Origin: an uncultured Chloroflexia bacterium
GTDB taxonomy: Bacteria > Chloroflexota > Limnocylindria > QHBO01
Direction: 5' to 3'
Assembly: GCA_963814375.1 (NCBI GenBank)
Contig: CAWFCQ010000008.1
Coordinates: forward strand, 192,001 to 256,000
Length of the DNA: 64,000 nucleotides
The notes under the pieces were generated by a model. It saw nothing but the letters and a program-made list of their open reading frames with translations, ran no database searches and was not told the origin of the DNA. The number at the start of each line of letters is the position of its first letter. The stretch's first letter is position 1. Made by a program: the position numbers and the translations under genes. This document shows positions 2,560 through 47,398 of this stretch, piece by piece.

Positions 2560-3735
2560 ATGCGTGACGTGTACATCCTCTCCGCCGCCCGCACGCCGAT
2601 CGGGAAGTTCGGCGGGGCGCTCTCGACGACTCCGGCCACCGACTTGGGGTCGACGGCGATCCGCGCCGCGGTCGAGCGTTCCTCGGTGGCGCCGGAGAAG
2701 GTCGACGAGGTGATCATGGGCCAGGTGCTCCAGGCGGGCGCCGGCCAGGCCCCGGCGCGCCAGGCTGCCCTGAAGGCGGGGCTGCCGGAGAGCGTCAGCG
2801 CCACGACCATCAACAAGGTGTGCGGCTCCGGGCTCAAGGCCGTGATGCTCGGTGCATCGGGCATTCGAGCCGGCGATGCCGAGCTCATCGTGGCCGGCGG
2901 CATGGAGAGCATGAACATGGCGCCCTACCTGCTGCCGCAGGCGCGGACCGGGTACCGGCTGGGCGATGGCAAGGTGGTGGACTCGACCGTCCACGACGGC
3001 CTGTGGTGCTCGACCTGTGACGTCCACATGGGCATGCATGCCGAGCGGGTCGCGGCCAAGCACGAAGTCACCCGCGAGGCCCAGGACGAGTTCGCGCTGC
3101 GCTCGCACGAGCGCGCGGTCGCCGCCCAGGAAGCTGGCCGATTCGACGAGGAGATCGTCCCCGTGACGGTGCCCGGCAGGAAGGGCGACACCGTGGTGAA
3201 GGCCGATGAGGGCCCGCGCGCCGATACCAGCCCGGAGGCACTCGCGAAGCTGAAGCCCGCCTTCCAGCCTGACGGCGGGACCGTCACCGCCGGCAATGCA
3301 CCGGGCATCACCGATGGTGCCGCGGCGCTCGTCATCGGCTCGGAGGATGCGCTGAACGGCGCCCAGCCGATGGCGCGCATCACCGGCTATGCCCAGGCCG
3401 ATGTCGCCCCCGAGTGGCTGTTCGAAGCGCCGATTCACGGCGTGCGGCGGCTGATCGAGCGCGTCGGCGGCTCGCTCGACGACTACGACCTGATCGAGAT
3501 CAACGAGGCATTCGCCGCACAGGTCCTGGCCGATGGCAACGAGCTCGGCTTCGACTGGGATCGCGTCAACGTCAACGGCGGCGCCATTGCGCTCGGCCAC
3601 CCGATCGGCGCATCCGGCGCCCGCGTCCTGACCACGCTCCTGTACGAGCTCCGACGCCGCGGCGGTGGCAAGGGCCTCGCCACGCTGTGCCTCGGCGGCG
3701 GGGGAGCGGTGGCGATGGCGGTCGAAACAGTCTGA
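2560..3735 (+). CDS. Acetyl-CoA C-acetyltransferase (thiolase)
   Basis: [19 protein letters not shown] and CLGGG motifs; TACCAT -10 lies 7 nt before the ATG, suggesting a leaderless mRNA. Confidence 0.95.
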
Positions 3736-6991: not shown

Positions 6992-8260
<1,269 letters not shown>

Positions 8261-26818: not shown

Positions 26819-28110
26819 GCGTCGGGCTGCAGCGGCTGCGTGACGACAACGATCGGTTGAGGCTGGCCGCCGGCGACAAGGGCGAGGACCCGACGATCGT
26901 CGACCGTGCGCTCGAGCTCGACGAGCGGCGTCGCGCGCTCGTGGCCGAGGGAGACTCGCTCAAGGCCGAACGCAACGAGGCGAGCCGGCGCATCGGCGAG
27001 GCGGTCCGCGGCGGCGCCGATGCCAGCGGGCCGGAGGTGGCGGAGCTCAAGCAGGCATCGGCCGCCGTGGCTGATCGAATCGCGGCGATCGACGCGGAGC
27101 TCGAGCGGGTCCAGGCCGATCTCGATGACGCGATGCTGCGGATCCCGAACCCGGCTGACCCGGATGTGCCGGTCGGCGGCGAGGAGGCGAACCAGGTCGT
27201 GCGGACCTGGGGCGAGCCACTGCCGCGCGGGGATCTGCGCCCGCACTGGGAGATCGGCGAGTCGCTCGGGATCATCGACAACGCCCGCGGCGCGAAGGTC
27301 ACCGGCTCCGGCTGGCCGGTATACGTCGGCGACGGCGCCACTCTCCAGCGGGCCCTCATCGGCTGGTTCCTGGACACCCATTCGCGCGAGAACGGGATGA
27401 CCGAGGTGTGGCCGCCGGTGCTCGTCAACGCCGACAGCGCCCGCGGAACGGGGCAGATCCCGGACAAGGAGGACCAGATGTACGTCGCCACGCGCGACGA
27501 CCTCTACCTGGTTCCGACCGCGGAGGTGCCCGTCACGAACCTCCACCGCGACGAGATCTTCGAGGCCGATGCGCTGCCGCGACGCTACGCGGCCTACTCG
27601 GCATCGTTCCGCCGCGAGGCCGGCGCCGCCGGCCGCGACACGCGCGGGATCCTGCGGGTCCACCAGTTCGACAAGGTCGAGATGGTCAGCTTCACGCGCC
27701 CGGAGCACTCGGCCGATGAGCTGGAGTGGCTGACCGGCTGCGCCGAGAGGCTCCTTCAGCGGCTCGGGCTCGCCTACCGGGTCGTGCTGATGAGCACGCG
27801 AGAGATGGGCTTCGTGCAGGCCAAGAAGTACGACCTCGAGGTCTGGGCGCCGGGGGCCGAGCGCTGGCTCGAGGTGAGCAGCGTCAGCAACTTCCGTGAC
27901 TACCAGGCGCGCCGCATGGCGATTCGCTACCGATCCGGGGCGGGCGCCCGGGCTGACCTGGTCCACACCCTCAACGGCTCGGGTCTCGCCCTGCCGCGCA
28001 CGGTTGCCGCGCTGCTCGAGACCTACCAGCAGCCGGACGGCAGCGTGACCCTGCCCGAGGTGCTGCGCCCGGCGTTTGGCGGCCGCGATCGGATCGCTGC
28101 CACCGCCTGA
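26815..28110 (+). CDS. serS: Seryl-tRNA synthetase
   Basis: N-terminal coiled coil; PTAEVP, FRREAG, RVHQFDKVE, EVSSVSN and TLNGSGLA motifs. Confidence 0.96.
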   Translation: MSVGLQRLRDDNDRLRLAAGDKGEDPTIVDRALELDERRRALVAEGDSLKAERNEASRRIGEAVRGGADASGPEVAELKQASAAVADRIAAIDAELERVQADLDDAMLRIPNPADPDVPVGGEEANQVVRTWGEPLPRGDLRPHWEIGESLGIIDNARGAKVTGSGWPVYVGDGATLQRALIGWFLDTHSRENGMTEVWPPVLVNADSARGTGQIPDKEDQMYVATRDDLYLVPTAEVPVTNLHRDEIFEADALPRRYAAYSASFRREAGAAGRDTRGILRVHQFDKVEMVSFTRPEHSADELEWLTGCAERLLQRLGLAYRVVLMSTREMGFVQAKKYDLEVWAPGAERWLEVSSVSNFRDYQARRMAIRYRSGAGARADLVHTLNGSGLALPRTVAALLETYQQPDGSVTLPEVLRPAFGGRDRIAATA

Positions 28111-28966: not shown

Positions 28967-29425
28967 TCAGTGGTGCCCGTGGATGACGGCGTGGCCCCGG
29001 CCGCGCGAGATGAGCCAGCGGTTGACCGGGAAGGCAACGACCCAGGCGATGGCGAGCGCGACCGCCAGGCTGCCCCAGAAGAGGAGGCTGTCGAGGTGGG
29101 CATCCATGGCGCCCGGGATGACGAGCATGATCGCGTTGTCGACGAGCTCCATGATCGCGATCGAGATCGTGTCGGCCACGAGCGCGAGTCCCATGGCCCG
29201 GCCCAGCGCCATCCCGGAGGCGATCAGCGGCCAGACGGTGAGGCTGTACCCGAAGACGAAGGCGAGACCGATGGCGAGGACGATCGTCGCCGCCGTGCTC
29301 CAGCCCAACGCCGTGCCGATCACCATTCCGGCCACCTCGCCGATGGCGCATCCCGTCAGGCAGTGCGTGGTGGCCCTGGCCGCAAGCCGGTTGAGCGACT
29401 CGCCCGCTCGCCCCGCGTGGTCCAC
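28967..29425 (-). CDS. DUF4396-like membrane protein
   Basis: ATTHCLTGCAIGEVAG, DTISIAIME and PVNRWLI motifs; His-rich C-terminus. Confidence 0.85.
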   Translation of the reverse strand: MDHAGRAGESLNRLAARATTHCLTGCAIGEVAGMVIGTALGWSTAATIVLAIGLAFVFGYSLTVWPLIASGMALGRAMGLALVADTISIAIMELVDNAIMLVIPGAMDAHLDSLLFWGSLAVALAIAWVVAFPVNRWLISRGRGHAVIHGHH

Positions 29426-29427
29426 GA

Positions 29428-30633
29428 TCAGGCGGTCGTGGCGGGAGCCTCCGCGACCTCGGGCGGAAGTTCCTCGATCGCCGGCGGGGTAGCCGGACGG
29501 AGCCCGAACAGCGTCCGCATCGGTCCTACCCGTCGGACCGCGTACTCGTACAGCAACCAGGTGGCGCCGAACGACCCGGCGACGATGGCGATGTGCTTGA
29601 CCCACATCCCGACCGGCCACGTCACCGCCACGACGGCGATCGCCACCACGATCGGGTGGTGCAGCACGTAGAAGGGCAGCACCGCGTCGCTCGCATAGTC
29701 CAGCGCGGCGGTCCGCCGCGTCAGGTAGCGAATCGCGAAGCCGAGGACGGCCATCACCCACAACGTCGTTGCGGCGGATCGAACGACGAGGTACGCGACG
29801 CCCTCGGGCGTGATGGCCAGCACCCGCTCGAACTCCCACAACCGATCCATGGCGACGAACGGCACGAGGCCGATCGATGCCGCGATGGCACCGGCCATCA
29901 GCAACCAGCGCCGCCTGGTCAGCGCCTCGCCGAATCGATCGTCTGCAACCAGCATCGCACCGGCGATCACGAATCCGAGACCCAGGATGAAGTCCGCCCA
30001 GTCATACAGCTGCGGGAAGAACGGCCGCAGCGCGAGCTGTGCGACGACCAACGCAGCCAGCAGGCCGACCGTCCCAAGCACCCGCCCGCCCGGCGTAGCC
30101 ATGCGTCCAATCAGGCGGCGGCCCGGCTCGGATCGGAGCCACACCAGCGCCGGGAGGGAGAGGATCCCGTACAGGAAGAGGAAGCCGATGAACCAGAGGT
30201 GATAGCCGTAGACCCCGAGCCAGCTCGGGCCGGTCGGGATCGGCAGTGCGGCGAACCACCCGGGGACGAAGCCCGCCAGCGACTCCTGCGAGCCGCCATT
30301 GACGGCGGCCAGCCAGGCCTGGAGCGGGCTGATGAGGAGGAAGCCGAGGACGATCGGGGGGAGCAGGCGCTGGACGCGCTGCATCGCGAACGCGCGGGCA
30401 GGGCGCGTCTCGAGCGCGAACCATGCCGCTGCACCGGAGAGCATGAACAGCAGCGGGAGACCGAAGAGATAGCCGAAGCCGGCGAACGCGCTCAGCGCCA
30501 GGCTGCGCTCGTCATCCTGGATCAGCCAGCCGGCGATGGTGAAGACCTGGGCGGTGTGGTAGTAGCACACGCCGATGACGAGGATCACCTTCAGCCAGTC
30601 GATCCAGGGCAGATGCTCGCTCGGGCGTGCCAT
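29428..30633 (-). CDS. Acyltransferase family 3 (OafA/MdoC-like) membrane protein
   Basis: WIDWLK, LFMLSG, RVQRLL, HLWFI and PFYVLH motifs. Confidence 0.87.
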   Translation of the reverse strand: MARPSEHLPWIDWLKVILVIGVCYYHTAQVFTIAGWLIQDDERSLALSAFAGFGYLFGLPLLFMLSGAAAWFALETRPARAFAMQRVQRLLPPIVLGFLLISPLQAWLAAVNGGSQESLAGFVPGWFAALPIPTGPSWLGVYGYHLWFIGFLFLYGILSLPALVWLRSEPGRRLIGRMATPGGRVLGTVGLLAALVVAQLALRPFFPQLYDWADFILGLGFVIAGAMLVADDRFGEALTRRRWLLMAGAIAASIGLVPFVAMDRLWEFERVLAITPEGVAYLVVRSAATTLWVMAVLGFAIRYLTRRTAALDYASDAVLPFYVLHHPIVVAIAVVAVTWPVGMWVKHIAIVAGSFGATWLLYEYAVRRVGPMRTLFGLRPATPPAIEELPPEVAEAPATTA

Positions 30634-33134: not shown

Positions 33135-34017
33135 TCAGTCGCCGACCACGGCGAGCGCTTCCTCCGGCACGCCGAGCTCGGCGGCAAGCGCGGCCTTCAG
33201 CTCATCGGCTCCGGGTGAGGCGCCGGTCAGCAGGCTCACCGTGGCCGCCGTCGACGCCAGGAAGGCGCCCTGCCCGTTGGCAACCGTCCCGCCCTTCTCG
33301 CGTCGCCGCCTCCATGAGCGGCGTGGACGCTCGGGTCAGCACCAGGTCGAGCACGAAGCGCTCCTCAGGCAGAAGGTCGGCCGGGATCGGCGACTCGCCC
33401 TCGTCTGCGCCGATGCCGCTGGCGTTCACGAGGAGCTCGGCGCGCGCGAGCTCGGCCTCGATGATGGCGTCGTGCCATGGCCGCGCGCGCAGCTCCATGT
33501 GGCGGGCGGTCCGCGCAAAGTGGGCGACGAGCGCCTCAGCCCGATGCAGGTGCCGGTTCAGCACCGCCACCCGCTGGAATCCGGAGCCGATGAGCACCGC
33601 CACGACGGCTCGGGCCCCGCCGCCCGCGCCCAGCACGACCGCGTTGCGCGGCCATTTGCCCTTGACCCGTGGCAGGAGCGCCGCCAGCCCGGTGCGGATG
33701 CCGTCGGCATCGGTGTTGTGGCCTCGCAGCTTCCCCTCGGCGGTGACCATCACGTTCACCGCGCCACTGATGCGCGCGTCGTCGCTGAGCCCGTCGGAGA
33801 GTGGGGGAGCCTTCTCCTTGTGGGGCGACGCGATCAGCGCCCCGGCGAAGTCGGCGCCTCGGGCCTCGATCAGCGCATCGGCAAGCTGGTGGGGCCGGCG
33901 CTCCCAGCGCTCGATCGCGACCTCGCTGCCGGCCTGCTCCAGCGCGGCGCGCAGCACGCCCTCGAGGGCGGTCCGGGCGAGCGGATGACCGATGATCGGG
34001 AGTCGCGAGGCAGGCAT
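33135..34017 (-). CDS. aroE: Shikimate dehydrogenase-like protein (frameshift near 33290)
   Basis: PHKE, GAVN, GHNTD, LGAGGGARA and VNAS motifs; C-terminus lies in another frame; substrate motifs diverged. Confidence 0.8.
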
Positions 34018-34109: not shown

Positions 34110-34202
34110 GGAGAGGTCGCATAGTGGCCTAGTGCGGCGGTTTGCTAAACCGTTGAAGGGGGTAAACCTCTTCCGAGGGTTCGAATCCCTCCCTCTCCGC
34201 CA
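34110..34202 (+). tRNA. tRNA-Ser(GCT)
   Basis: Anticodon loop TTGCTAA, long variable arm, CCA; TGCTATCAT promoter upstream. Confidence 0.96.
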
Positions 34203-34227: not shown

Positions 34228-34303
34228 GTGCCCGTAGCTCAGTGGATAGAGCGTCAGGTTGCGGACCTGAAGGTCGGAGGTTCGAGTCCTCTCGGGCACG
34301 CCA
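34228..34303 (+). tRNA. tRNA-Arg(GCG)
   Basis: GTGCCCG/CGGGCAC acceptor, TCAGG-TTGCGGA-CCTGA anticodon arm (GCG at 34261-34263), A20 in D loop, CCA. Confidence 0.94.
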
Positions 34304-34325
34304 TCGCATCGTGACCAACGGATCG

Positions 34326-35156
34326 CTAACCGGGCGTCCCGTCGCGCTCCCTTTTCTTAGCGAAATGCTCTGCTTGCCATTCATACACGCCGGGCAGCCA
34401 TTCCCTGCCGAACGCGGCCGATGGGCCGATGCGCGGGTCATCGGGAGCGCGGCCGTCACGCAGGGCATGCACGTACGCGCGATCCAGGTCGATCCGTGCG
34501 CGCACCTGATCAGCTCCGCCGACTGACCCGTGACCTGGGATGACAATCTCAACGTCGTCCGCCACATCCTCGAGCAGCCGCAGTCCAACGAGGTAGTCCT
34601 CGATCGGATTCGCGGCGTCCAGGTCGGGGAACGGAATCAGGATGTCGGACAGCATGTCGCCGGCGACGAGAACGCCGCGCTCCTCGATCAATAGCGCCGC
34701 GTGGCCCTGGGCATGTGCCGGATGTTCGATGATCCGGACGTGAGGCCCATCCCAGGGAACCTGCGCTGTCTCGGCAGGCAGACCGGTGATGAGGCCGAAC
34801 AGGTCCATCGGTATCTCATCGGCGATTTCCGGCGGTAACCCCTCGGCGACGCGGGCCTTCCAGTCCGCGTCCGACAGCAGATCTCCCATGAAAGCCGCGC
34901 AGCGGGCTGTGCCGTATCGGGGCGCTTCGCCGAGTTCGGCGTGCCAGAGCACGTGGTCCCAATCAGGATGCGTTGAGAAACCCGCCACGACGGGCTGGCC
35001 CAAGTCGGACAGGTCGTTCGCGAGGCAGGCCATTTCGTCGCCCGTAATCCCCGGGTCGATGAGCAGCACGCCGGCCCGGCCTTGCACGACAACGGCGTTG
35101 TTCTGGAGTAACTCGCTCTGGTGGGTCAGCACACCTTCCGCGACCTGCGTCAGCAC
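34326..35156 (-). CDS. MBL-fold metallo-hydrolase
   Basis: LIDPG, THPDWDH, HAQGH, AGD and IPGHG motifs; GGAAGGAG RBS before the GTG. Confidence 0.87.
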   Translation of the reverse strand: MLTQVAEGVLTHQSELLQNNAVVVQGRAGVLLIDPGITGDEMACLANDLSDLGQPVVAGFSTHPDWDHVLWHAELGEAPRYGTARCAAFMGDLLSDADWKARVAEGLPPEIADEIPMDLFGLITGLPAETAQVPWDGPHVRIIEHPAHAQGHAALLIEERGVLVAGDMLSDILIPFPDLDAANPIEDYLVGLRLLEDVADDVEIVIPGHGSVGGADQVRARIDLDRAYVHALRDGRAPDDPRIGPSAAFGREWLPGVYEWQAEHFAKKRERDGTPG

Positions 35157-35253
35157 GGGGCTCCTTCCGCTTGTGATTTGCAACTACTTGTCTAGCAGTA
35201 TCTCAATCGGGGCTCCAAACCCGGCACGACAAGCCACCTAACTCCCCAACTTT

Positions 35254-36768
35254 CTAGATCCAGCACCAACCTCGCGGCGGCGCGCCGCTGCTGGTCGTGT
35301 CGTCCGGCAGCGTCTGCTCGCCGCAATCGGTGAAGAGGATCCGCGCACGCCAGCCGTCGGGGTCCAAGCGGAAGCGCCACCAGGAAGGGCAGGTAGACCA
35401 CGAAGCTGCCGACCACGAGGAGCGCGTAAACCGCCACCGCAACCCGTCCGGCAAGCCGCTCCCACGCCCATGCCGCGAATGTGCCGAGCGCCAGGCACAG
35501 GAAAGGGATCGTCGGCAGCAGGTACCAGATGAACGTCTGGCTGCGCCCGCCCGAGAGAACGAGCCACGGCAGGTAGGTGGAGGCTGCCGCGGCCAGGATC
35601 ACCGGCTCGGGACGGGCCCACGCCCATCCTGACCGCCACCACGTGACGGCCAAACCCACGAGCGCCACCAGCCCGGGCCACCACACGAGCGGGTTTCCCA
35701 TGGCCAGGATCTCGCGATATGCGCCGTCCTCGTCGCTGAACCAGTACGCGACCGGGCGTTTCAGGAACGGCCACGACCACGGCGGCGACTGGTACGGGTG
35801 GTCGCCCGCGAGCTCGGTGTGGAAGTCGAGCATCGCGCGCTGGTGCTGCCAGATCCCGTTCCAGACCGATGCCGGATCCCACGGGGCGGCGATCAGTTCG
35901 CCCGGCATCCGTCCGGTATAGCTGGCGACGTACACCACCAGCGGCACGAGCCCCAGCAGCACGATCGACGGCAGCGCCTCCCGCCGGGAGGCGCCGGCCA
36001 CCCAGCGGCCCCAACCACCTTCGGGATCGATCTTCCGCTGCGCCGATATCTCCCACGCCACCACCAGGCCGATGACCGCCGGCGCCACGTACGCTCCCGA
36101 CCACTTCGTCGCCACCGCCGCTCCCAGGAACACGCCGGCGACAAGCCGCCAGGGACGTCCGAGGGCGAGGCGCGACCACCACGGCTGATCGTCGGAACGA
36201 TCCCGGTCGCGGTCGAGCACGATCGCCAGGACCGCCCCGACCACGAAGAGCGCGATGAACGCATCGAGCATCCCGACCCGAGAGTGAACGAGATGGAGGA
36301 AGTCGACCGCCAGGAGGATGGCCGCCGCGGCGGCGCCGACCGTGACCGCGATGCCCGACGCGAAGCTCCGAAGCAGGCGCCAGCCGAGGAGGTAGACGAG
36401 CGGCACGGTGATCGTGCCGGCCAACGATGCGGCGATCCGCCAGCCGAACGGCTCGTAGCCGAAGGCCGCGATGCCGGCGCCGATCAGCCACTTTCCGAGA
36501 GGCGGATGCGAGCGGCTGGCGAGATCGGTGATGCCGCACACGGCTTCGTTGCCGAAGACGTACCAGCACGCGTCGCGGGCATAGAAGATCTCGTCGAAGA
36601 CGAGCTCGACCGGGCGCCCCAGGCTGGCGAGGCGAAGCGCGCCAGCGGCAAGCGTGATGAGAACGAGAACGGCCGTATCAAGCCGGGACCAGCCGCGGCG
36701 GTCGCTCGAGGGCGGCGCGTCGTTGACGATGATGCGACTCCCTCTCTGCCCGTGTCAGCGGCGAGCAT
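35254..36768 (-). CDS. Protein O-mannosyltransferase (PMT/GT39)-like glycosyltransferase (frameshifted)
   Basis: VFDEIFY, HPPLGKWL, FGWR, ATKWSG, HPYQS.PWSWP and GNPLVWW motifs; frame changes near 35370 and 36650-36700. Confidence 0.82.
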
Positions 36769-36826
36769 GCGAACGGCGCCTGCCGCGGCAATGCTACCCA
36801 CTGGCGCATCCCGCGACGAGCGGGCG

Positions 36827-37267
36827 TCAGTGACGCGATGGCTGCCCGAGGGTGAGGTCGATCGCGCGCGCCACCAACTCCCAGCACGAGAGGGAGTCGC
36901 GTTTCGCCGGCTCGGCGCGCCACACCAGGTTGCGGTAGTGATCGGAGACCGTGGAGAGCCGCTCGCGGGCGAAGCCATTCGTCGGGCGCAGCCACGCGTC
37001 GTCGGCCGGGAGGCCGTGGCCCGGGACGAACTGGAACGAGATGTTATAGCCGGCGCAGCTGGTCACGACCGTGTAGGCGCTCTCCCACGACGGGGCGAGG
37101 CGATGGATCGTCCAGCCCGGGAGCCGCGCGCGTACCTCGGCACGCACCGCCGCGCGACCGACGTCCGGCGTCGACGGAATCGGGATGAGCAGCGCGATGG
37201 CGAATGCGGCGACGAGGGCCGCCATCACTATGCCCGAGCGGCGCACCCTGGCCGAGATGGTTTGCAT
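36827..37267 (-). CDS. Hypothetical protein with N-terminal TM/signal
   Basis: 146-aa ORF, GGGAGG RBS, hydrophobic N-terminal helix. Confidence 0.7.
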   Translation of the reverse strand: MQTISARVRRSGIVMAALVAAFAIALLIPIPSTPDVGRAAVRAEVRARLPGWTIHRLAPSWESAYTVVTSCAGYNISFQFVPGHGLPADDAWLRPTNGFARERLSTVSDHYRNLVWRAEPAKRDSLSCWELVARAIDLTLGQPSRH

Positions 37268-37358
37268 GGAGCCTCCCGTGTGTGCAGGAAGCGTACCGGG
37301 CCTCTGCTAGACTCGCCCGACTGCCGCCACCGAATCCGTGGGGCCAAGAGGCGGACCG

Positions 37359-37799
37359 ATGAACTACGAACTCTTCATGGCTGAGGCGATTGCCGAAGCC
37401 AGGCGGGGGGCCGGAGAGGGCGAGGAGCCGATTGGCTCGGTCGCAGTCATCGACGATGCCATGATCGCGCGCGACCACGACCGGTCGGCCCTCAGCGAGG
37501 ATCCCACCGCCCATGCCGTGCTGCTGACCCTCCAGGCGGCCGCCCGCAAGCTCGGTCCCCGGCGGCTCTCGGAGGCAACGATCTTCGCCACGCACGAGCC
37601 GTGCGCGATGTGCGTGGGGGCGCTCGTCGAAGCGCAGGTGCGCGCGCTCGTGTTCGCCATCCCGGATCTGGAGCGCGGCGCGGCCGGAAGCGTCGTGCAG
37701 CTGGCCCGCCATCCCGCTCTCGCCCATCAGCTGTCCGTCGTGTCCGGCGTCCGCGAGTCGGAGGCGCGCCGGTTGGCCACCGAGTCCGCATCGGTCTAG
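37359..37799 (+). CDS. tadA: TadA-like nucleoside deaminase with HAE->HAV substitution
   Basis: E.PIG, DPTAHA, EPCAMC and GAAGS motifs; position before tRNA-Ser-ffs-dnaX-ybaB-recR matches tadA synteny. Confidence 0.85.
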   Translation: MNYELFMAEAIAEARRGAGEGEEPIGSVAVIDDAMIARDHDRSALSEDPTAHAVLLTLQAAARKLGPRRLSEATIFATHEPCAMCVGALVEAQVRALVFAIPDLERGAAGSVVQLARHPALAHQLSVVSGVRESEARRLATESASV

Positions 37800-37814
37800 A
37801 CTCCCATCGGCCGC

Positions 37815-37904
<90 letters not shown>

Positions 37905-37931: not shown

Positions 37932-38019
37932 GGAGAGGTCGCCTAGAGGCCTAGGGCGCGGCACTGGAAATGCCGTTCGGGGCAACCCGTCGTGGGTTCG
38001 AATCCCACCCTCTCCGCCA
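37932..38019 (+). tRNA. tRNA-Ser(GGA)
   Basis: CGGCA-CTGGAAA-TGCCG anticodon arm, long variable arm, CCA. Confidence 0.96.
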
Positions 38020-38071: not shown

Positions 38072-38340
38072 GGTCGTGCTAGGCGGGGAACTAGCGGTGC
38101 CCTGTATCCGCAATCCGCTACAGCGGAGCTGAATTCCCGGTCGAGGCCCGCACCGTTCGCCCACCGTCACCGTGCCCGACGTCGAGAGTCGGGTCCCGCG
38201 CAGCGTTGGTCCGCGAACCCCGTCAGATCCGGAAGGAAGCAGCGGTAAGCGATCGCCATCGGGTGCCGCGGGAGAACCTGGCTGGAGCCGGGCGCGTTGG
38301 CGAGTGCGAGCTGGTGCGGTTCGACACCGGGTGCACGACC
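38072..38340 (+). ncRNA. ffs: Signal recognition particle RNA, large (Alu-containing, Bacillus-type)
   Basis: 5' GTGCTAGGCGGGGAACTAGCGGTGCCCTGTA...GCAATCCGC Alu-like domain; helix-8 TCAGATCCGGAAGGAAGCAGC; terminal GGTCGTGC/GCACGACC pairing; precedes dnaX. Confidence 0.93.
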
Positions 38341-38405: not shown

Positions 38406-40041
38406 ATGCCCGCAGCCCAGCCCGTTCCCGTTGTCGAGCCCACGGCGCCGGCCGCACCGCATCGCGCACTGTACCGGCGCTTCCGCGCGCAGCGATTCGC
38501 CGAGCTGGTCGGCCAGGACCCGATCGTCGCCACGCTCCAGCGGGCTGTCAGCGGCGACCGGCTGGCGCACGCCTACCTGTTCGTCGGCCCTCGGGGGACG
38601 GGCAAGACGTCGACGGCTCGAATCCTCGCCAAGGCGATCAACTGCACCAACCTCGGCGCCGACGGCGACCCGTGTGACGCCTGCCCAGCATGCGTCTCGA
38701 TCCGGGACGGACGCGCGCTCGACGTTATCGAGATCGACGCCGCCAGCCATGGCGCGGTCGAGGACGCCCGCGAGCTCGTGATGCGGGCGCTGACCTCGCC
38801 AGCCGAGCTCCGCCGCAGGGTCTACATCATCGACGAGGTTCACATGCTCAGCGCGCACGCTTTCAACGCGTTGCTGAAGCTGATCGAGGAGCCGCCCGAC
38901 CACGTCGTCTTCATCCTGGCCACGACCGATACCCACAAGGTGCCGGCCACGATCATCAGCCGCACCCAGCGCCACGACTTTCGCCGGCTGGCCGATGCGA
39001 CCATCGTCGCCAAGCTGAGCCGCATCGTCGCCGCGGAGGGAGCCGAGGCCGATGACGACGCCCTGGCCCTCGTCGCGCGACTGGCCGACGGCGGCATGCG
39101 AGACGCCGAGTCGATCCTCGACCAGGTGCTCGCCTTCGCCGACGGGCGTCTCACCGCCAACGACGTGCGCGAGGCCGCCGGGCTCGCCGATGACGCCGAC
39201 ATCTCGGCGCTGGTCGACGCCTATCGTCGAGGGCGACGCGCCCGCAGCGCTCGACCGGGTCGCCGGACTGGCGGACGCCGGTCGCGACATGGCCCAGGTA
39301 GCCGCGCAGGCGGAGGGGGAGGCTCGACGACGCCTGCTCGCATCGGCTGGCGATCCGCCGGCGGCGCGACGCCTCGCGACCGTGCTGCGCGCCGTGGCCG
39401 AAGCCGCGGGGGAGGGCGCCCGCGAAGGACGCGCACGCCTGCTGCTCGAGCTGCTGGCCGTCGAGCCGGCCGGTGGCCTGACCGCATCCCCAGCGCCGTC
39501 ACGTCCCGCGGCCGCACCCGCCACCGCAACGGCGGCCGCGCCGGTGGCGGCCAAGCCAGCCGCGCCGGACGTGCCTGCACACCCGGCTGAACCGGAACGC
39601 GCTCCGGCGGAGGAGCCTCTGCCAGAGCCGATCGCATCGGCCATCGACGCGGCGGTGGCAGTCGGCGCCGGTGATATCGAATCGCTGCGGGCGCACTGGG
39701 CCGAGGTGGTCGATCGCGCCAGCCCGGTCATCAAGCCGCTGCTCAAGGAGTGCCGCCCGGTCGCCCGGGACGGCGTTCGGCTGACCCTCGCCTTCCCCGA
39801 AGGTCGCGAGTTCATGCGCTCACGAATCGCACAGCGATCCGGCGCGATCGAGGCGCTGCTGACCGACATGTTCGGCGGCACCTTCGCGATAGAGTGCGTC
39901 GCCACCAACCTCGAGCTCGAGCCTCTGACGGTCGAGCAGGCGGTGGGCACATCACCAGACGACCCGGAGGCACGCGCCCTTCTCGAGGGCGTGCTCAAGA
40001 TCACCGGCGGCGAGCTCGTCGACGCTCCCGAGGTGCGCTGA
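38406..40041 (+). CDS. dnaX: DNA polymerase III subunit gamma/tau (frameshift near 39225)
   Basis: ALYRRFR, GPRGTGKT, Zn Cys cluster, IIDEVHML, SRTQ and GGMRDA motifs; C-terminal part lies in ORF 39052-40041. Confidence 0.92.
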
Positions 40042-40076: not shown

Positions 40077-40403
40077 GTGAACATCGGTCAGATCACCAAG
40101 ATGGCGCAGCAGATGCAGACGCAGATGGTGCAGGCCCAGGAGGAGCTCAAGCAGACGACGCTCGAGGCCAGTGCCGGCGGAGGCGCCGTCCGTGTGGTCA
40201 TCACCGGTGCCCAGGAGGTCCGCAGCGTCGAGATCGATCCTTCGGCGGTGGACCCGTCCGAGGTCGAGATGCTCCAGGACCTGGTGATGACCGCCATCAA
40301 CGAGGCGATCGCGCGCAGCAAGGAGCTGGAGCGCGAGCGGATGGCCGGGATCGCCGGAGGGATGGGCCTGCCCGGCATGCCCGGCCTGCCGGGGCTCGGC
40401 TAG
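40077..40403 (+). CDS. ybaB: YbaB/EbfC nucleoid-associated protein
   Basis: AQQMQ, ASAGGGAV and EMLQDL motifs; lies between dnaX and recR. Confidence 0.93.
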   Translation: MNIGQITKMAQQMQTQMVQAQEELKQTTLEASAGGGAVRVVITGAQEVRSVEIDPSAVDPSEVEMLQDLVMTAINEAIARSKELERERMAGIAGGMGLPGMPGLPGLG

Positions 40404-40408
40404 GCGAC

Positions 40409-41020
40409 GTGGCCGGGCTCATCGCGCCGGTCGCGCGCCTCATCGACGAGTTCAGCAAGCTGCCCGGAGTCGGCACGAAGACGGCCCAGCGCCTCACGTA
40501 CCACGTCCTCCGTTCGTCGACCGATGACGCCCGCGCGCTCGCGGCCGCGCTCGTCGCGATCAAGGAGGACGTCGCCTACTGCAGCGTGTGCTGCAACATC
40601 ACCGAGGCCGGTGTCGATCCCTGCGATCTATGCGCCGATCCGCGCCGGGATGCCCGTCGCATCTGCGTCGTCGAGGAGCCCCTCGACGTGCTCGCCATCG
40701 AGCGAACGAATGAGTTCCGTGGCCGCTACCACGTGCTCCATGGGGCGATCAGCCCGATCGATGGGATCGGGCCGGAGCGCCTCCGCACCCGCGAGCTGAT
40801 CGGCCGCGTGGCCGAGGGCGGGGTGGACGAGGTCATCCTCGCGACCAACCCGAATCTCGAGGGAGAGGCGACCGCGATGTATCTCGCCGATCTCCTCGCG
40901 GCGCACGTACCGTCGGTGACCCGCATCGCGCGCGGGCTTCCGGTCGGCGGCGACCTCGAGTACGCCGACGATGTGACCCTCATCCGCTCGCTCCAGGGCC
41001 GCCGCGCCGTCGAGCGCTGA
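40409..41020 (+). CDS. recR: Recombination mediator RecR
   Basis: LPGVGTKTAQR HhH, Cys4 Zn finger, YHVLHG and EVILATNP TOPRIM motifs. Confidence 0.96.
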   Translation: MAGLIAPVARLIDEFSKLPGVGTKTAQRLTYHVLRSSTDDARALAAALVAIKEDVAYCSVCCNITEAGVDPCDLCADPRRDARRICVVEEPLDVLAIERTNEFRGRYHVLHGAISPIDGIGPERLRTRELIGRVAEGGVDEVILATNPNLEGEATAMYLADLLAAHVPSVTRIARGLPVGGDLEYADDVTLIRSLQGRRAVER

Positions 41021-43867: not shown

Positions 43868-43944
43868 GGGCGTTTAGCTCAGCTGGTTAGAGCACTGCCC
43901 TGATAAGGCAGAGGTCTCTGGTTCGAGTCCAGAAACGCCCACCA
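43868..43944 (+). tRNA. tRNA-Ile(GAT)
   Basis: CTGCC-CTGATAA-GGCAG anticodon arm, CCA; own TGCTACGAT extended -10 at 43846-43854. Confidence 0.96.
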
Positions 43945-43973
43945 CCTCACCTCCCTCGACCGATGGAGCGCCC

Positions 43974-44774
43974 GTGTCCTCAGACCCGGCCGGCACCGAG
44001 CCGATGACCGACGCGCGCCCGATGGGAGTCCTGGACGCACCGAACGACGGCCGCGCGCTGCACGCGACCATCAACGGCGTCGTCTATGCGCGGCATCCGG
44101 TTCGGACCCATCTCGTCACCGCCGCCGACGACGCCGCGCAGGTGGTCGGTCGCTACGCAGGCGCGCTCGGGGACGACGTGCGCCTTGTCGCGGTCAGCGA
44201 GCGCATGGTCGCGATCACGCAGGGCCGTTCCTATCCGATCGATGAGATCCAGCCGGGGCGGCTGGCGAGGTTCCTCGAGCGGTATGTGACGCGGCCCGGC
44301 TACGGCATCGGCCTGGGATCGGCGCAGACGATGCAGCTGGCGATCGACGAGGTCGGCGCGCCGAGGATCCTTCTGGCCGCCGCGGCATCGGCGGTGACGA
44401 AGCCCTTCGGCGTCCACGGCGTCTTCTACCGCGTGGCAGGACCGCAGGCGAAGGCGATCGACGGCCCGACGTCGTACACCATCCCGCCGTACAACAAGGC
44501 CGCCACGCTCGGGCCGAGCAGGCCCGACGACGCGGCGCGCGGCCTGGCTGCCGCGGTCGGCATTCCGGTTGCGATCATCGACGCCAACGACGCCGGCTGC
44601 GCGGTGCTCGGCGCCAGCCCGGGCGTCGATCGTCGCTTCGTCGCCCGTCTCTTCGCCGACAACCCGCTCGGACAGGCGCGGGAGCAGACCCCCATGTGCG
44701 TCGTGCGCGAGGTCGCCTGGCCGCCAGACCAGGATCTTCCCCCCGAGCCTCGTCGTCGGCTGACCCCACCCTAG
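43974..44774 (+). CDS. Coenzyme F420-0:L-glutamate ligase (CofE)-like domain protein
   Basis: VRTHLV, VSERMVAITQGR, AIDG, IIDAND and DNPLGQ..EQTP pattern of short F420_ligase-family proteins (recognised from memory). Confidence 0.6.
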   Translation: MSSDPAGTEPMTDARPMGVLDAPNDGRALHATINGVVYARHPVRTHLVTAADDAAQVVGRYAGALGDDVRLVAVSERMVAITQGRSYPIDEIQPGRLARFLERYVTRPGYGIGLGSAQTMQLAIDEVGAPRILLAAAASAVTKPFGVHGVFYRVAGPQAKAIDGPTSYTIPPYNKAATLGPSRPDDAARGLAAAVGIPVAIIDANDAGCAVLGASPGVDRRFVARLFADNPLGQAREQTPMCVVREVAWPPDQDLPPEPRRRLTPP

Positions 44775-44785
44775 GCGGTGCATCC

Positions 44786-45646
44786 GTGGCCAGCCCGACT
44801 GCTCGCCAGCTCATCCTGACGCTCTCGTGCCCCGATGGGCGAGGGATCGTGGCGCGAGTCGCGGGCCTCATTGCGGCCGGCGATGGAAACATCATCGACA
44901 GCCACCAGTTCGGCGATCCTGACGCGGGCCGGTTCTTCATGCGAATCCACTTCGACGCCGCCGGGCGGCCGCTGGAGGAGTGGCGCGCCACACTCGCGCC
45001 GCTGGCCGTCGAGCTCGAGATGACGTGGGAGCTCCATGACGTCGCCGTTCGCCCCCGCGTCCTGGTGCTGGTCTCGCGCGAGGGCCACTGCCTTAACGAC
45101 CTCCTCTACCGCTGGCGGACCGGGTCCATCGCCGGCGACGTCGTCGGGGTCGCGTCGCCGTACGCCGACTTCGCTGAGCTGGCGGCTGCCTACGGTGTGC
45201 CCTGGCACACGCTCCCCGGAACTGGCGCCGCGCGGGGCGAGCTCGACCGTGCGCTCCTCGACCTCGTGGACCAGGATGCCGTGGATCTCGTCGTCCTCGC
45301 CCGCTTCATGCAGGTGCTCGGCGACGAGGCGTGTGCCGCACTCGCCGGGAGAGCGATCAACATCCACCACTCGTTCCTGCCGTCGTTCAAGGGGGCCAGG
45401 CCGTATCGCCAGGCGCACGACCGCGGCGTGAAGCTCATCGGTGCCACCGCGCATTACGTGACCGAGGAGCTCGACGAAGGCCCGATCATCGAGCAGGAGG
45501 TGGCGCGGGTCGATCACGCGCACAGCGTCGCCGAGATGGCGCACAACGGCCGTGATGTCGAATGCGTCGCGTTAGCACGCGCGGTTCGCTGGCACGTCGA
45601 GCACCGCGTCCTGCTCCATGGGCGGCGCACCGTCGTCTTTCGCTGA
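44786..45646 (+). CDS. purU: Formyltetrahydrofolate deformylase
   Basis: ACT domain CPD..GIVA; HCLNDLL, INIHHSFLPSFKGARPY and GATAHYVT motifs. Confidence 0.96.
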   Translation: MASPTARQLILTLSCPDGRGIVARVAGLIAAGDGNIIDSHQFGDPDAGRFFMRIHFDAAGRPLEEWRATLAPLAVELEMTWELHDVAVRPRVLVLVSREGHCLNDLLYRWRTGSIAGDVVGVASPYADFAELAAAYGVPWHTLPGTGAARGELDRALLDLVDQDAVDLVVLARFMQVLGDEACAALAGRAINIHHSFLPSFKGARPYRQAHDRGVKLIGATAHYVTEELDEGPIIEQEVARVDHAHSVAEMAHNGRDVECVALARAVRWHVEHRVLLHGRRTVVFR

Positions 45647-45654
45647 CCAGCCGC

Positions 45655-46983
45655 TCAGGCCGGGTCGATAACCGAGAACAGCTGCCACGATCCGTCGAAG
45701 CCCTTCAGGGTCCTCCGGCCCACATCGGCGAAGGTGATGCCCGATCCGGCCACGAGGTCGCGCACCGTGCTCGAGACCAGGATCTCGCCCGCAGCCGCCT
45801 CGCCGGCAACTCGCGCGCCGATGTTGACGGCGATGCCGGCGACCTTGTCGCCGAGGACCTCGACCTCGCCGGTGTGCAGGCCGGCCCGCAGCCCGAGGCC
45901 GAGGTCCGCGACACCGGCCATGATGGCCCGCGCGCAGCGGATGGCTCGGGCCGGGCCGTCGAAGGTGGCGAAGAACCCGTCCCCCGCGGTATCCACCTCG
46001 CGACCGTCGAACCGGGTCAGCTCTCGTCGAATCGCTGTGTGATGCTGCTCGAGGAGGTCGCGCCAGCGGCGATCGCCCAGCGACGCCGCCATCTCGCTCG
46101 ACGTCACCAGGTCGGTGAACAGGATCGTCACGAGCACGCGATCGGGGCTGGCGGTCTCGCGCGTGCCGGTGAGGAACTCGCGGATCTCGGCGACGGTCGG
46201 CTCCGGGTCGAACCACGGAACGTGATCGGACCCGGGCAGCTCGACGTAGCGCGCGCCCGGGATGTGGCGTGCCAGGTACCGGCCGTTCTCGACGTGGCAG
46301 ACGCGGTCATCGGCGGCATGGATGACGAGGGTCGGGACGTTGACGGTGGGCACGACATCACGCACGTCGATCTCGAATGCCATGCGCATGAACGCCTCGG
46401 CCGCGCTGGGGGTCGCCGCGTTGAGCTGCACTTTGGCCCGCCAGGCGCGGGCCCACTCGAGGCCATTCACGCTCGGCGCGATCTGCCAGATCCCGGTCCC
46501 GCCACCCCAGCGGCCGGCAAGGCCGGCCATGTTCGCCTCGTGCTCCTCGACGGTGGCCTCGCCCCAGGGCCACTCCTCGTCGGTGCGCTCGCGCACCTCC
46601 CCGCCCTGAAGGATCAGCGCCGACGTGCGCTCCGGATGCGCGGCCGCGAAGAGAAGCGCCAGCGGCCCGCCCTCGGACTCCCCGATGATGGCGGCGCGCT
46701 CGCTGCCGACCGCATCCATGATCGCGCGGATGTCGTCCATCCGATCCTCGAGCGTTGTGGCGCCCGGTACCCGATCCGACATGCCGTACCCGCGTTTGTC
46801 GAAGAGGATGAGCCGGGTGAACTCGGCCAGGCGCTCGCAGTAGTGACGGAAGGCGGGCAGCTCCCAGTACACGTCGAGGTGTGTATACGAGCCCTGCGCG
46901 TAGACGAGATCGATCGGTCCATCCCCCACGACGCGGTACGCCACGTTGACGTCGCCGCTGCGGGCGAAGCGAACCTCGGTCAC
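45655..46983 (-). CDS. Alpha/beta hydrolase-class III nucleotidyl cyclase fusion (LipJ-like)
   Basis: FDKRGYG and GESEGG hydrolase motifs; LFTDLV, AGDGFF, GLHTGE and AVNIGAR cyclase motifs. Confidence 0.9.
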   Translation of the reverse strand: MTEVRFARSGDVNVAYRVVGDGPIDLVYAQGSYTHLDVYWELPAFRHYCERLAEFTRLILFDKRGYGMSDRVPGATTLEDRMDDIRAIMDAVGSERAAIIGESEGGPLALLFAAAHPERTSALILQGGEVRERTDEEWPWGEATVEEHEANMAGLAGRWGGGTGIWQIAPSVNGLEWARAWRAKVQLNAATPSAAEAFMRMAFEIDVRDVVPTVNVPTLVIHAADDRVCHVENGRYLARHIPGARYVELPGSDHVPWFDPEPTVAEIREFLTGTRETASPDRVLVTILFTDLVTSSEMAASLGDRRWRDLLEQHHTAIRRELTRFDGREVDTAGDGFFATFDGPARAIRCARAIMAGVADLGLGLRAGLHTGEVEVLGDKVAGIAVNIGARVAGEAAAGEILVSSTVRDLVAGSGITFADVGRRTLKGFDGSWQLFSVIDPA

Positions 46984-47070
46984 GCGACGAGGGTCACGGT
47001 CGCATCGGAGGCTGTCAAGGCGCAGACGCGCTGGGCCGGATGCCCCGTTTGCTACGATGGGCGTTCCGGT

Positions 47071-47146
47071 GGGGATGTAGCTCAGCTGGGAGAGCACCTC
47101 CTTTGCAAGGAGGGGGTCAGGGGTTCGAGTCCCCTCATCTCCACCA
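47071..47146 (+). tRNA. tRNA-Ala(TGC)
   Basis: GGGGATG acceptor with G3:U70, TTTGCAA loop, CCA; own TGCTACGAT extended -10 at 47050-47058. Confidence 0.96.
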
Positions 47147-47398
47147 TCTCGATCCGCTCGCTTTCGCTGCGCGTCGGCGACCCAGCGTCGCGGCTGACCG
47201 CGGTTGCGTTCTCTGTGGACCCCGAACTGGGAAGGATTGCGACGCCGAACGGGGCTTGATATTCCTGACCGTCGTGGGTATCTCAGAAGACGTGCGCCAG
47301 ATGCAGGAGTCGACAACCGCGGCCGTATGGTCGGCTCGCCGAGAATAATCCCGCGATGGTTACCGATCCTGCGCGCTAGCTACCCGCCCGTGGTTCGG

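Follow-up and report, generated by a model that had tools for sequence, protein, structure and literature searches.

Nearly all bacteria have TadA, from which the adenine base editors were derived. In the Mollicutes, as modelled by Yokobori et al. (2013, PMC3711424), tRNA-Arg(ACG) was replaced by tRNA-Arg(GCG), a UCG tRNA reads CGA and tadA was lost; a passage of PMC8007984 records tRNA-Arg(GCG) in Thermotogae and Spirochaetes, and a rewiring of arginine decoding to G34 is a known kind of event in these three groups. A TadA-derived protein that has lost its catalytic residue is described in passages of PMC7713142 and PMC8216470: ADAT3, in which Val (in this type of protein a hydrophobic residue, Val or Cys) replaces the Glu and the Zn is kept, has a negative surface and a C-terminal helix that is cut short; it is inactive and cannot hold the anticodon loop. 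The locus described here lies in a 64,000-nucleotide stretch of DNA from an uncultured bacterium of the class Limnocylindria (Chloroflexota; contig CAWFCQ010000008.1, positions 192,001–256,000), termed the window, and pairs a tRNA-Arg(GCG) gene with a gene for a TadA homologue in which the proton-shuttle Glu is Val. Two families of the class, denoted f1 and f3, are proposed, with a probability of roughly 0.78, to keep this TadA-derived, stand-alone pseudo-deaminase under selection, with a non-catalytic role, after a switch to tRNA-Arg(GCG).

The TadA-like gene (37359..37799, plus strand) encodes 146 residues from a conserved ATG start, which public gene calls also use (MNYEL); a longer open reading frame of 153 residues (37338–37799) runs from an alternative GTG start at 37338. 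Codons 37500–37520, GAT CCC ACC GCC CAT GCC GTG, read DPTAHAV, the Val codon GTG occupying 37518–37520, and PCAMC lies downstream, leaving the Zn ligands (His and PCxxC) in place, as the original prediction had stated. The TadA motif H-x-E with its proton-shuttle Glu is therefore absent, HAV standing in its stead, with Val at this position throughout f1 and f3. Pfam places the protein among the deaminases of the cytidine deaminase (CDA) type (MafB19-deam 1.4e-25, dCMP_cyt_deam_1 4.8e-19), and its score against the NCBIfam TadA equivalog NF008113 is 116.8 bits, under the cut-off of 150. Further substitutions named in that prediction were read again by aligning the protein, without gaps, to TadA chains of solved structure: strand 2 is D-H-D-R here versus G-W-N-R in the Escherichia coli-derived chains, the loop is DLERG versus N-A-K-T-G, with Glu at the position of the Lys, A-H replaces the N-H of TadA, and the protein stops about 15 residues short of the aromatic/basic end of the C-terminal helix. 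The corresponding loop of wild-type TadA is D-x-K-x-G.

The same pattern of kept and lost positions extends through the clade of HAV proteins. Residues H52, E80, P81, C82, M84 and C85, of the Zn site and the EPCxMC motif, are invariant in 49 sequences. The strand-2 pocket position, Asn in HAE relatives, is D, Q, R, G, C or E across the HAV clade; the loop Lys position is unconserved in that clade and lies within PDpKaG in the HAE relatives; and the C-terminal segment is shorter and holds no aromatic residues in HAV proteins versus a median of two in HAE proteins. A helix is still predicted at residues 133–145, and its E is kept. The HAV alignment contains no conserved acidic residue near the active site that could act as a substitute, and a check for a Zn-capping residue found a variable C-terminal tail whose end has no conserved Cys, Asp or His and which falls in the last block of the structural model, where the predicted local distance difference test (pLDDT) score is 70. 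Median core net charge is −6 in HAV proteins (n = 86) versus −1 in HAE proteins (n = 5 in-class, n = 65 representatives). A strand-2 Asn, a basic residue after strand 4 and a C-terminal helix with E and F are listed as features of the TadA/Tad2 clade in a table passage of Iyer et al. (2011, PMC3239186). TadA-type binding of the anticodon loop appears to have been lost, and binding in the TadA style is unlikely for these proteins.

The Val is a lineage trait and not an error. A contig assembled from a DNA run covers 37383–37650 with three letter differences, and contigs of three metatranscriptome libraries cover 37315–37497, 37385–37522 and 37606–37807 with two differences each; none of these differences falls at 37518–37520. 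Positions 36800–37178 are spanned by no contig of these four runs, a gap to which no meaning is attached. Every f1 and f3 relative examined has the same Val, in line with the earlier argument against a read error. The JGI/IMG label ‘tRNA(adenine34) deaminase’ is attached to 13 of the 40 read members of the protein’s 90% cluster, and also to other HAV clusters (P0004, P0009); on Val-bearing proteins this label is propagated and unsupported by sequence.

Together with the source genome, 40 relatives (41 genomes) were searched, and the protein was matched in 35 of the 41. HAV was found in 24 of 29 relatives’ loci, comprising 18/18 from f1 and 6/6 from f3, and HAE in the remaining five, from families f2 and f5. 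Eighty further public loci, a set biased to HAV because one search key held the motif, gave DPTAHAV in 79 cases and DPIAHAV in one, and all 47 tRNA-Arg genes inside these loci are GCG. An unbiased draw of 300 genomes of the class, from families f1 to f5, was scored for patterns per genome. The DPTAHAV codon pattern was present in 90 of 103 f1 genomes, 77 of 91 f3 genomes, 2 of 92 f2 genomes, 0 of 12 f4 genomes and 0 of 2 f5 genomes. For the tRNA-Arg(ACG) pattern the counts, in the same order of families, were 0/103, 0/91, 55/92, 0/12 and 1/2, and for tRNA-Arg(GCG) they were 89/103, 83/91, 3/92, 10/12 and 0/2. Each positive genome had a single DPTAHAV match, the reversed-pattern control gave zero in all families, and the f1 and f3 genomes that failed to match are incomplete or carry pattern variants such as DPIAHAV. 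The two f2 matches (G077 and G250) were rejected as chance frames lacking deaminase context. A GCG match in genome G125 was likewise set aside: of its two matches, one is on contig C198 and the other is on a 3.3-kb contig and is of f1 type, with Ser(GCT), and G125 also has ACG, so that it is read, though this reading is unproven, as a mixed bin.

The class thus shows the proposed co-occurrence of HAV with GCG in two families, ACG going with HAE. Families f1 and f3 combine tRNA-Arg(GCG) with the HAV protein, and f2 and f5 combine tRNA-Arg(ACG) with an HAE TadA (141 bits in G039 and 129 bits in G029, both f2). Protein identity between families is approximately 50–60%; the anticodon arm of tRNA-Arg(GCG) varies very little, and the same arm is found in f4. 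In that family, with genomes of 1.0–1.4 Mb and GCG, the sole CDA-fold protein is Cdd-like (SPCGVCRQ), present in 12 of 16 genomes, and no tadA remnant was found at the locus in genome G032. Two f2 species (G027 and G074) have a GCG–TCG tandem and only a 41–47-bit paralogue; the congeners with ACG, G039 and G029, have this paralogue too. Loss of tadA is the usual fate after G34 appears, as in the Mollicutes model, and since these other GCG lineages of the class have no tadA, its retention in f1 and f3 is meaningful and would imply a non-catalytic role.

Purifying selection on the HAV gene is observed, and the gene is plainly non-neutral. Ratios of non-synonymous to synonymous substitution rates (dN/dS) were computed pairwise with the NG86 method for 90 distinct HAV sequences, using the 3,947 of 4,005 pairs with 0.1<dS<1.5, and gave a median of 0.239 (deciles 0.12–0.49), well below 1. 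The value for recR from the same loci is 0.173 (median; 54 orthologues, 1,430 pairs). The Val codon itself varies synonymously, being GTC in 46 sequences, GTG in 41, GTT in two and GTA in one. In a quick maximum-likelihood tree, 46 Limnocylindria-type HAV rows, including 44 from loci and the representative P0019, form one clade with a Shimodaira–Hasegawa-like approximate likelihood ratio test (SH-aLRT) value of 98 and a stem of 0.67. Among the best 150 of 10,955 representative matches, 26 are HAV, all of them DPTAHAV, and 116 are HAE, the rest being fragments or frameshifted calls. An HAV representative from another phylum (P0037, 44% identity, with the full C-terminal motif) was discounted as isolated, 79 of 80 loci related to it having HAE and one having no motif.

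The tRNA-Arg gene (34228..34303, plus strand) was called GCG by ARAGORN and matches the Rfam tRNA family with 70.6 bits at 34228–34300; its anticodon loop, TTGCGGA, agrees with the anticodon assigned to it at the outset. Its conserved 5′ neighbour is tRNA-Ser(GCT) (34110..34202, plus strand; ARAGORN; Rfam 55.4 bits), and the Ser(GCT)–Arg pair is seen again at related loci; in 26 of 30 fetched loci the tRNA-Arg is GCG. Downstream of the TadA-like gene, all on the plus strand, are tRNA-Ser(CGA) (37815..37904; ARAGORN, Rfam), which begins 15 nucleotides past the stop codon and comes after the TadA-like gene in 77 of 80 related loci, tRNA-Ser(GGA) (37932..38019; ARAGORN, Rfam), the signal recognition particle (SRP) RNA gene ffs (38074..38338; RF01854, 177 bits), dnaX in two overlapping reading frames (38430..40041; the N-terminal ATPase, with DNA_pol3_delta2 at 2.9e-40, in 38430–39590 and DnaX_C in 39052–40041), ybaB (40077..40403; YbaB_DNA_bd, 1.9e-32) and recR (40409..41020; Toprim_4, RecR_HhH and RecR_C), the comparison gene for dN/dS. 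Rfam and Pfam thereby reproduce the tadA–ffs–dnaX–ybaB–recR synteny that had been proposed, and the position of the TadA-like gene ahead of Ser(CGA), Ser(GGA), SRP RNA, dnaX, ybaB and recR marks it as the tadA orthologue.

In 13 Myxococcota-type loci the order is Ser(GCT)–Arg(ACG)–tadA(HAE)–Ser(CGA)–Ser(GGA). Because these loci hold Arg(ACG) at the same place, the GCG gene is a positional orthologue of tRNA-Arg(ACG), and an in-place point change from ACG to GCG would be the simplest history. The order Ser(TGA)–Ser(GCT)–Arg(ACG)–tadA–Ser(CGA)–Ser(GGA) is common to the Myxococcota-type loci (L260, L262–L273) and Limnocylindria, an unusually deep conservation across phyla. Within this locus, dnaX occupies one frame in most relatives. 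From P-loop to stop it measures 334 residues in the source genome, and 403–553 in 57 of the 59 relatives whose 3′ end is complete; the split is likely to be an indel in the assembly, or else a true frameshift.

The source assembly has 2.52 Mb, 70% GC and eight contigs, with 89% completeness and 4.5% contamination. Neither the 54 Rfam nor the 61 ARAGORN tRNA calls from this 89%-complete assembly include an A34 tRNA, and the arginine tRNAs found are GCG, CCG, UCU and CCU. A second ‘tRNA-Arg(gcg)’ called by ARAGORN on contig C3 was rejected as a likely false positive, being absent from the 54 Rfam matches and not tRNA-like in sequence. The TadA-like gene is the sole CDA-fold match in the genome. 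CGA accounts for 4,548 of 45,052 Arg codons in 1,398 long open reading frames with a coding-type GC pattern, showing no avoidance, and a reader of this common codon must therefore exist. Of the expected tRNA-Arg(UCG), the assembly, at 89% completeness, yielded three 5′ halves and no intact copy. ARAGORN calls the whole gene in five congeneric genomes (G008, G014, G023, G010 and G016), and similar matches were obtained by BLAST in several further genomes. As tRNA-Pro(UGG) is likewise missing from the assembly, incompleteness is the simplest reading of this gap. What had been expected of the tRNA set was thus borne out for the absence of tRNA-Arg(ACG) and of a second CDA-fold gene, though not for tRNA-Arg(UCG), which is represented in this assembly by 5′ halves only.

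These 5′ halves belong to three tRNA-Arg(UCG)-derived units on the minus strand of contig C5, at 27897–27986, 29371–29436 and 33227–33315, numbered 1898–1987, 3372–3437 and 7228–7316 within locus L193. Each unit is about 160 nucleotides long and joins some 50 nucleotides of upstream flank to positions 1–38 of tRNA-Arg(UCG), followed by a conserved tail of roughly 70–100 nucleotides; all are on the same strand and break off the tRNA right after the anticodon loop. A scan of the whole assembly that allowed up to 6 mismatches in 36 nucleotides found no 3′ half of tRNA-Arg(UCG), and no Rfam family was found in C5:26000–35000. Relatives of the same genus carry arrays of such units, on the same strand, beside an intact tRNA-Arg(UCG), for example six or seven in G008:C2 and five in G009:C10. 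Such units might have been left behind by integration events that struck the tRNA gene repeatedly, or might be a repeat derived from the tRNA. The source genome showed no integrase, and two open reading frames of about 400 codons behind the units have no Pfam match, are not homologous to one another and show weak coding signal.

The AlphaFold2 (AF2) model of the TadA-like protein has a pLDDT of 92.3 and a predicted template modelling score (pTM) of 0.89. Foldseek aligns it with TadA structures at template modelling (TM) scores of 0.90 (7cph, from Bacillus subtilis) and 0.89 (2b3j), and with the deaminase domain of mouse ADAT3 (7nz7_B) at 30% identity. A homodimer model scores 0.78 against 0.00 for the best of three controls and passes a mark attained by 20 of 30 proteins solved as one-chain pairs and by 1 of 23 whose solved form is a single chain, a calibration that is only rough because a custom alignment was used. 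Contact agreement between dimer runs is at least 100% and partner pLDDT is at least 93; TadA homodimers have already been solved, and the pass may stem from likeness to these. The model points to a TadA-folded, Zn-site-bearing protein that is probably a homodimer. Its predicted interface takes in DPTA-H and PCAMCVG, so that the invariance of these motifs can be explained without catalysis.

A catalytic partner was sought among second CDA-fold genes and the candidates were rejected. Those that some relatives carry are of three kinds, an Fcy1-like one with HGE...SPCDMC, an HPE type with RHPE...HCPMC and paralogues with DPTAHAE; they are not universal, and none of them occurs in the source genome. 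In G010 a CDA-fold gene with an intact H-P-E...HCPMC motif (C9:5806–6069; minus strand, 510–749 of locus L181) lies about 100 nucleotides downstream of tRNA-Ser(GGA), beside the dead TadA, and G015 carries a similar gene on a different contig. With only 2 of 24 genus genomes carrying it, this gene is no general partner. An MBL-fold neighbour gene was found in 0 of 80 loci.

Taken together, the results suggest the following history. In the ancestor of f1 and f3, the tRNA-Arg gene of the Ser(GCT)–Arg...tadA–Ser(CGA)–Ser(GGA)–ffs locus would have changed from A34 to G34. With G34, CGU and CGC would be read without inosine, CGA by tRNA-Arg(UCG) and CGG by tRNA-Arg(CCG). The tadA orthologue would have exchanged its proton-shuttle Glu for Val, as in ADAT3/Tad3, and its pocket Asn and loop Lys would have gone too, together with the aromatic/basic end of the C-terminal helix. 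Even so, the gene would have escaped decay, purifying selection keeping a Zn-site-bearing, TadA-folded and probably homodimeric protein, for which non-catalytic binding or a scaffold function is the best guess. The view of the original prediction that decoding was rewired and a pseudo-enzyme retained has agreed with each of the tests proposed for it. Its suggestion that the protein may be neofunctionalised is inferred from the selection, and its suggestion of an RNA or nucleotide binder is unsupported, given the free variation at the pocket Asn position, the loss of the RNA-binding motif at the C terminus and the greater acidity of the protein.

Several points weigh against this history. Loss of deaminase activity is read from the motif, and a complex of ADAT2-E73A with ADAT3-deltaC gives some deamination of tRNA-Ala in a passage of PMC8216470, so that a Val-bearing site is not proven absolutely dead. 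The decoding scheme of the source genome is completed from relatives, tRNA-Arg(UCG) being missing from its assembly. Family f4 and two f2 species do without the tadA-like gene, and its role is thus not essential in general. The dN/dS pairs are non-independent, dS is imprecise at 70% GC and the estimates are pairwise only. The contigs from RNA libraries may hold DNA and are at most a hint of transcription. Searches for an HAV-specific motif, a conserved partner gene or a fusion that would indicate the role found none, and the neighbouring genes considered as partners, an upstream open reading frame of 146 residues in 39 of 80 loci and a PMT-like gene in 46 of 80, were rejected as showing synteny at the family level only.

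Four other explanations of the locus were considered. The assembly contains at least one likely indel, with dnaX in two frames, and a base-calling or assembly error turning GAG into GTG, or a mis-called tRNA, might be invoked on that ground; with Val in more than 100 independent genomes, independent run contigs in agreement at 37518–37520 and the tRNA called by two programs (ARAGORN and Rfam), the probability of such an artefact is negligible. A neutral relic, useless since the A34-to-G34 change and decaying slowly without function, would account for the disappearance of the catalytic Glu, pocket Asn, loop Lys and C-terminal motif, and for the complete loss of the gene in other GCG lineages of the class. 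This is very improbable given an intact frame with the same Val in 24/24 f1 and f3 loci and 80/80 further loci, a median dN/dS of 0.24 near the 0.17 of recR, a Val codon that turns over synonymously and a fold confidently predicted even though identity between families is about 50–60%.

If the conserved gene has a function, it might still be that of an enzyme, either a Zn hydrolase or deaminase with a different substrate, or an enzyme that edits A to I weakly by means of another general base. The invariant Zn ligands and EPCxMC motif would fit such an enzyme, as would the residual activity that the Val-bearing site of ADAT3 has once uncapped, according to a passage of PMC8216470. It is nonetheless distinctly improbable, as no alternative acidic residue is conserved by the site, the Asn position is D, Q, R, G, C or E, the genome has no A34 tRNA, and the conserved motif residues sit in the predicted dimer interface, where their conservation is explained without catalysis. 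The protein might instead read the anticodon loop of tRNA-Arg(GCG) non-catalytically, with G34 as a mimic of the inosine-like product, and serve as a chaperone, protector or regulator. Co-occurrence with the GCG tRNA in two families, the very uniform GCG anticodon arm and the predicted retention of the TadA fold and of the dimer that forms the RNA site all favour a reader, but its C-terminal aromatic/basic motif is lost, its net charge is more negative and its pocket Asn is unconstrained, and the same GCG arm occurs in f4, which lacks the protein; a reader of this kind is quite unlikely. A selected pseudo-deaminase with a non-catalytic role, in a lineage that switched to tRNA-Arg(GCG), is preferred to these explanations. 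As a tentative and still unlikely extension of it, the protein may be a bacterial stand-alone counterpart of ADAT3, a Zn-stabilised homodimer that has taken on a new task in translation without catalysis, for instance binding tRNA-Arg(GCG), with G34 mimicking inosine, or partnering an RNA enzyme. If so, pseudo-deaminases of the TadA type would have arisen at least two times by the same Glu-to-Val route, and a catalysis-independent activity of TadA would be worth seeking in ordinary bacteria.

The protein resembles ADAT3/Tad3 in its derivation from TadA, the exchange of Glu for Val, the His/Cys/Cys Zn site, the short C-terminal helix and the less basic surface. ADAT3 functions solely in an obligate heterodimer with catalytic ADAT2 and has an N-terminal tRNA-binding domain and a C-terminal residue that caps the Zn, whereas the Limnocylindria protein has no catalytic paralogue in its genome, consists of the deaminase domain only (146 residues), lacks an A34 substrate and is a predicted homodimer. 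In view of the missing catalytic partner and N-terminal domain and the predicted self-pairing, it falls outside the ADAT3 family, although by analogy it is taken to work like the pseudo-catalytic domain of ADAT3. Synteny, the fold (TM 0.9) and the best sequence matches tie it to bacterial TadA, from which it differs in the absence of the HAE Glu, the Asn, the loop Lys and the C-terminal F/basic motif, in its sub-cut-off NCBIfam score and in the disappearance of the tRNA substrate from the genome. The change from ACG to GCG with a UCG tRNA for CGA corresponds to that of Mollicutes, Thermotogae and Spirochaetes and matches f1, f3, f4 and two f2 species; unlike in Mollicutes, tadA is kept in f1 and f3 as a selected dead copy, and the lineage is free-living with 70% GC rather than a reduced AT-rich genome. 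A literature search, outside whose reach supplementary tables could hold cases, found no paper describing a bacterial TadA without the catalytic Glu.

The locus would represent a natural evolutionary experiment in which TadA was long kept after loss of both its chemistry and its substrate, having taken the Glu-to-Val route to a pseudo-enzyme seen in eukaryotic ADAT3 without a catalytic partner. As one class presents three outcomes (ACG with an active TadA, GCG with a dead TadA, and GCG without any TadA), it should be possible to reconstruct in which order the tRNA changed and the enzyme was lost. The annotation of these proteins is also a systematic error: surveys of inosine capacity scored by the presence of tadA would miscount an abundant soil group.

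Two further features of the assembly were observed. In the window, the spacer between the 16S and 23S rRNA genes (43944–47071) places 3.1 kb between tRNA-Ile(GAT) and tRNA-Ala(TGC), which are only about 20–30 nucleotides apart in two related loci. The spacer codes for a PurU-like ACT and formyl-transferase protein (44696–45646, plus strand) and an alpha/beta-hydrolase-adenylate-cyclase protein (45655–47316, minus strand), and its DNA is either a genuine insertion into the rRNA operon or an assembly chimera. Elsewhere in the assembly, two tRNA clusters occur twice, the order being inverted: Leu-Cys-Gln-Gly-Phe-Val-Leu-Leu at C4:430194–438316 and C8:548447–556222, and Ala(GGC)/Ala(CGC) at C2:225206–238142 and C5:241509–253561. 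Both doubled clusters lie near contig ends and have identical Rfam scores, which suggests duplicated contig ends or a large assembly repeat.

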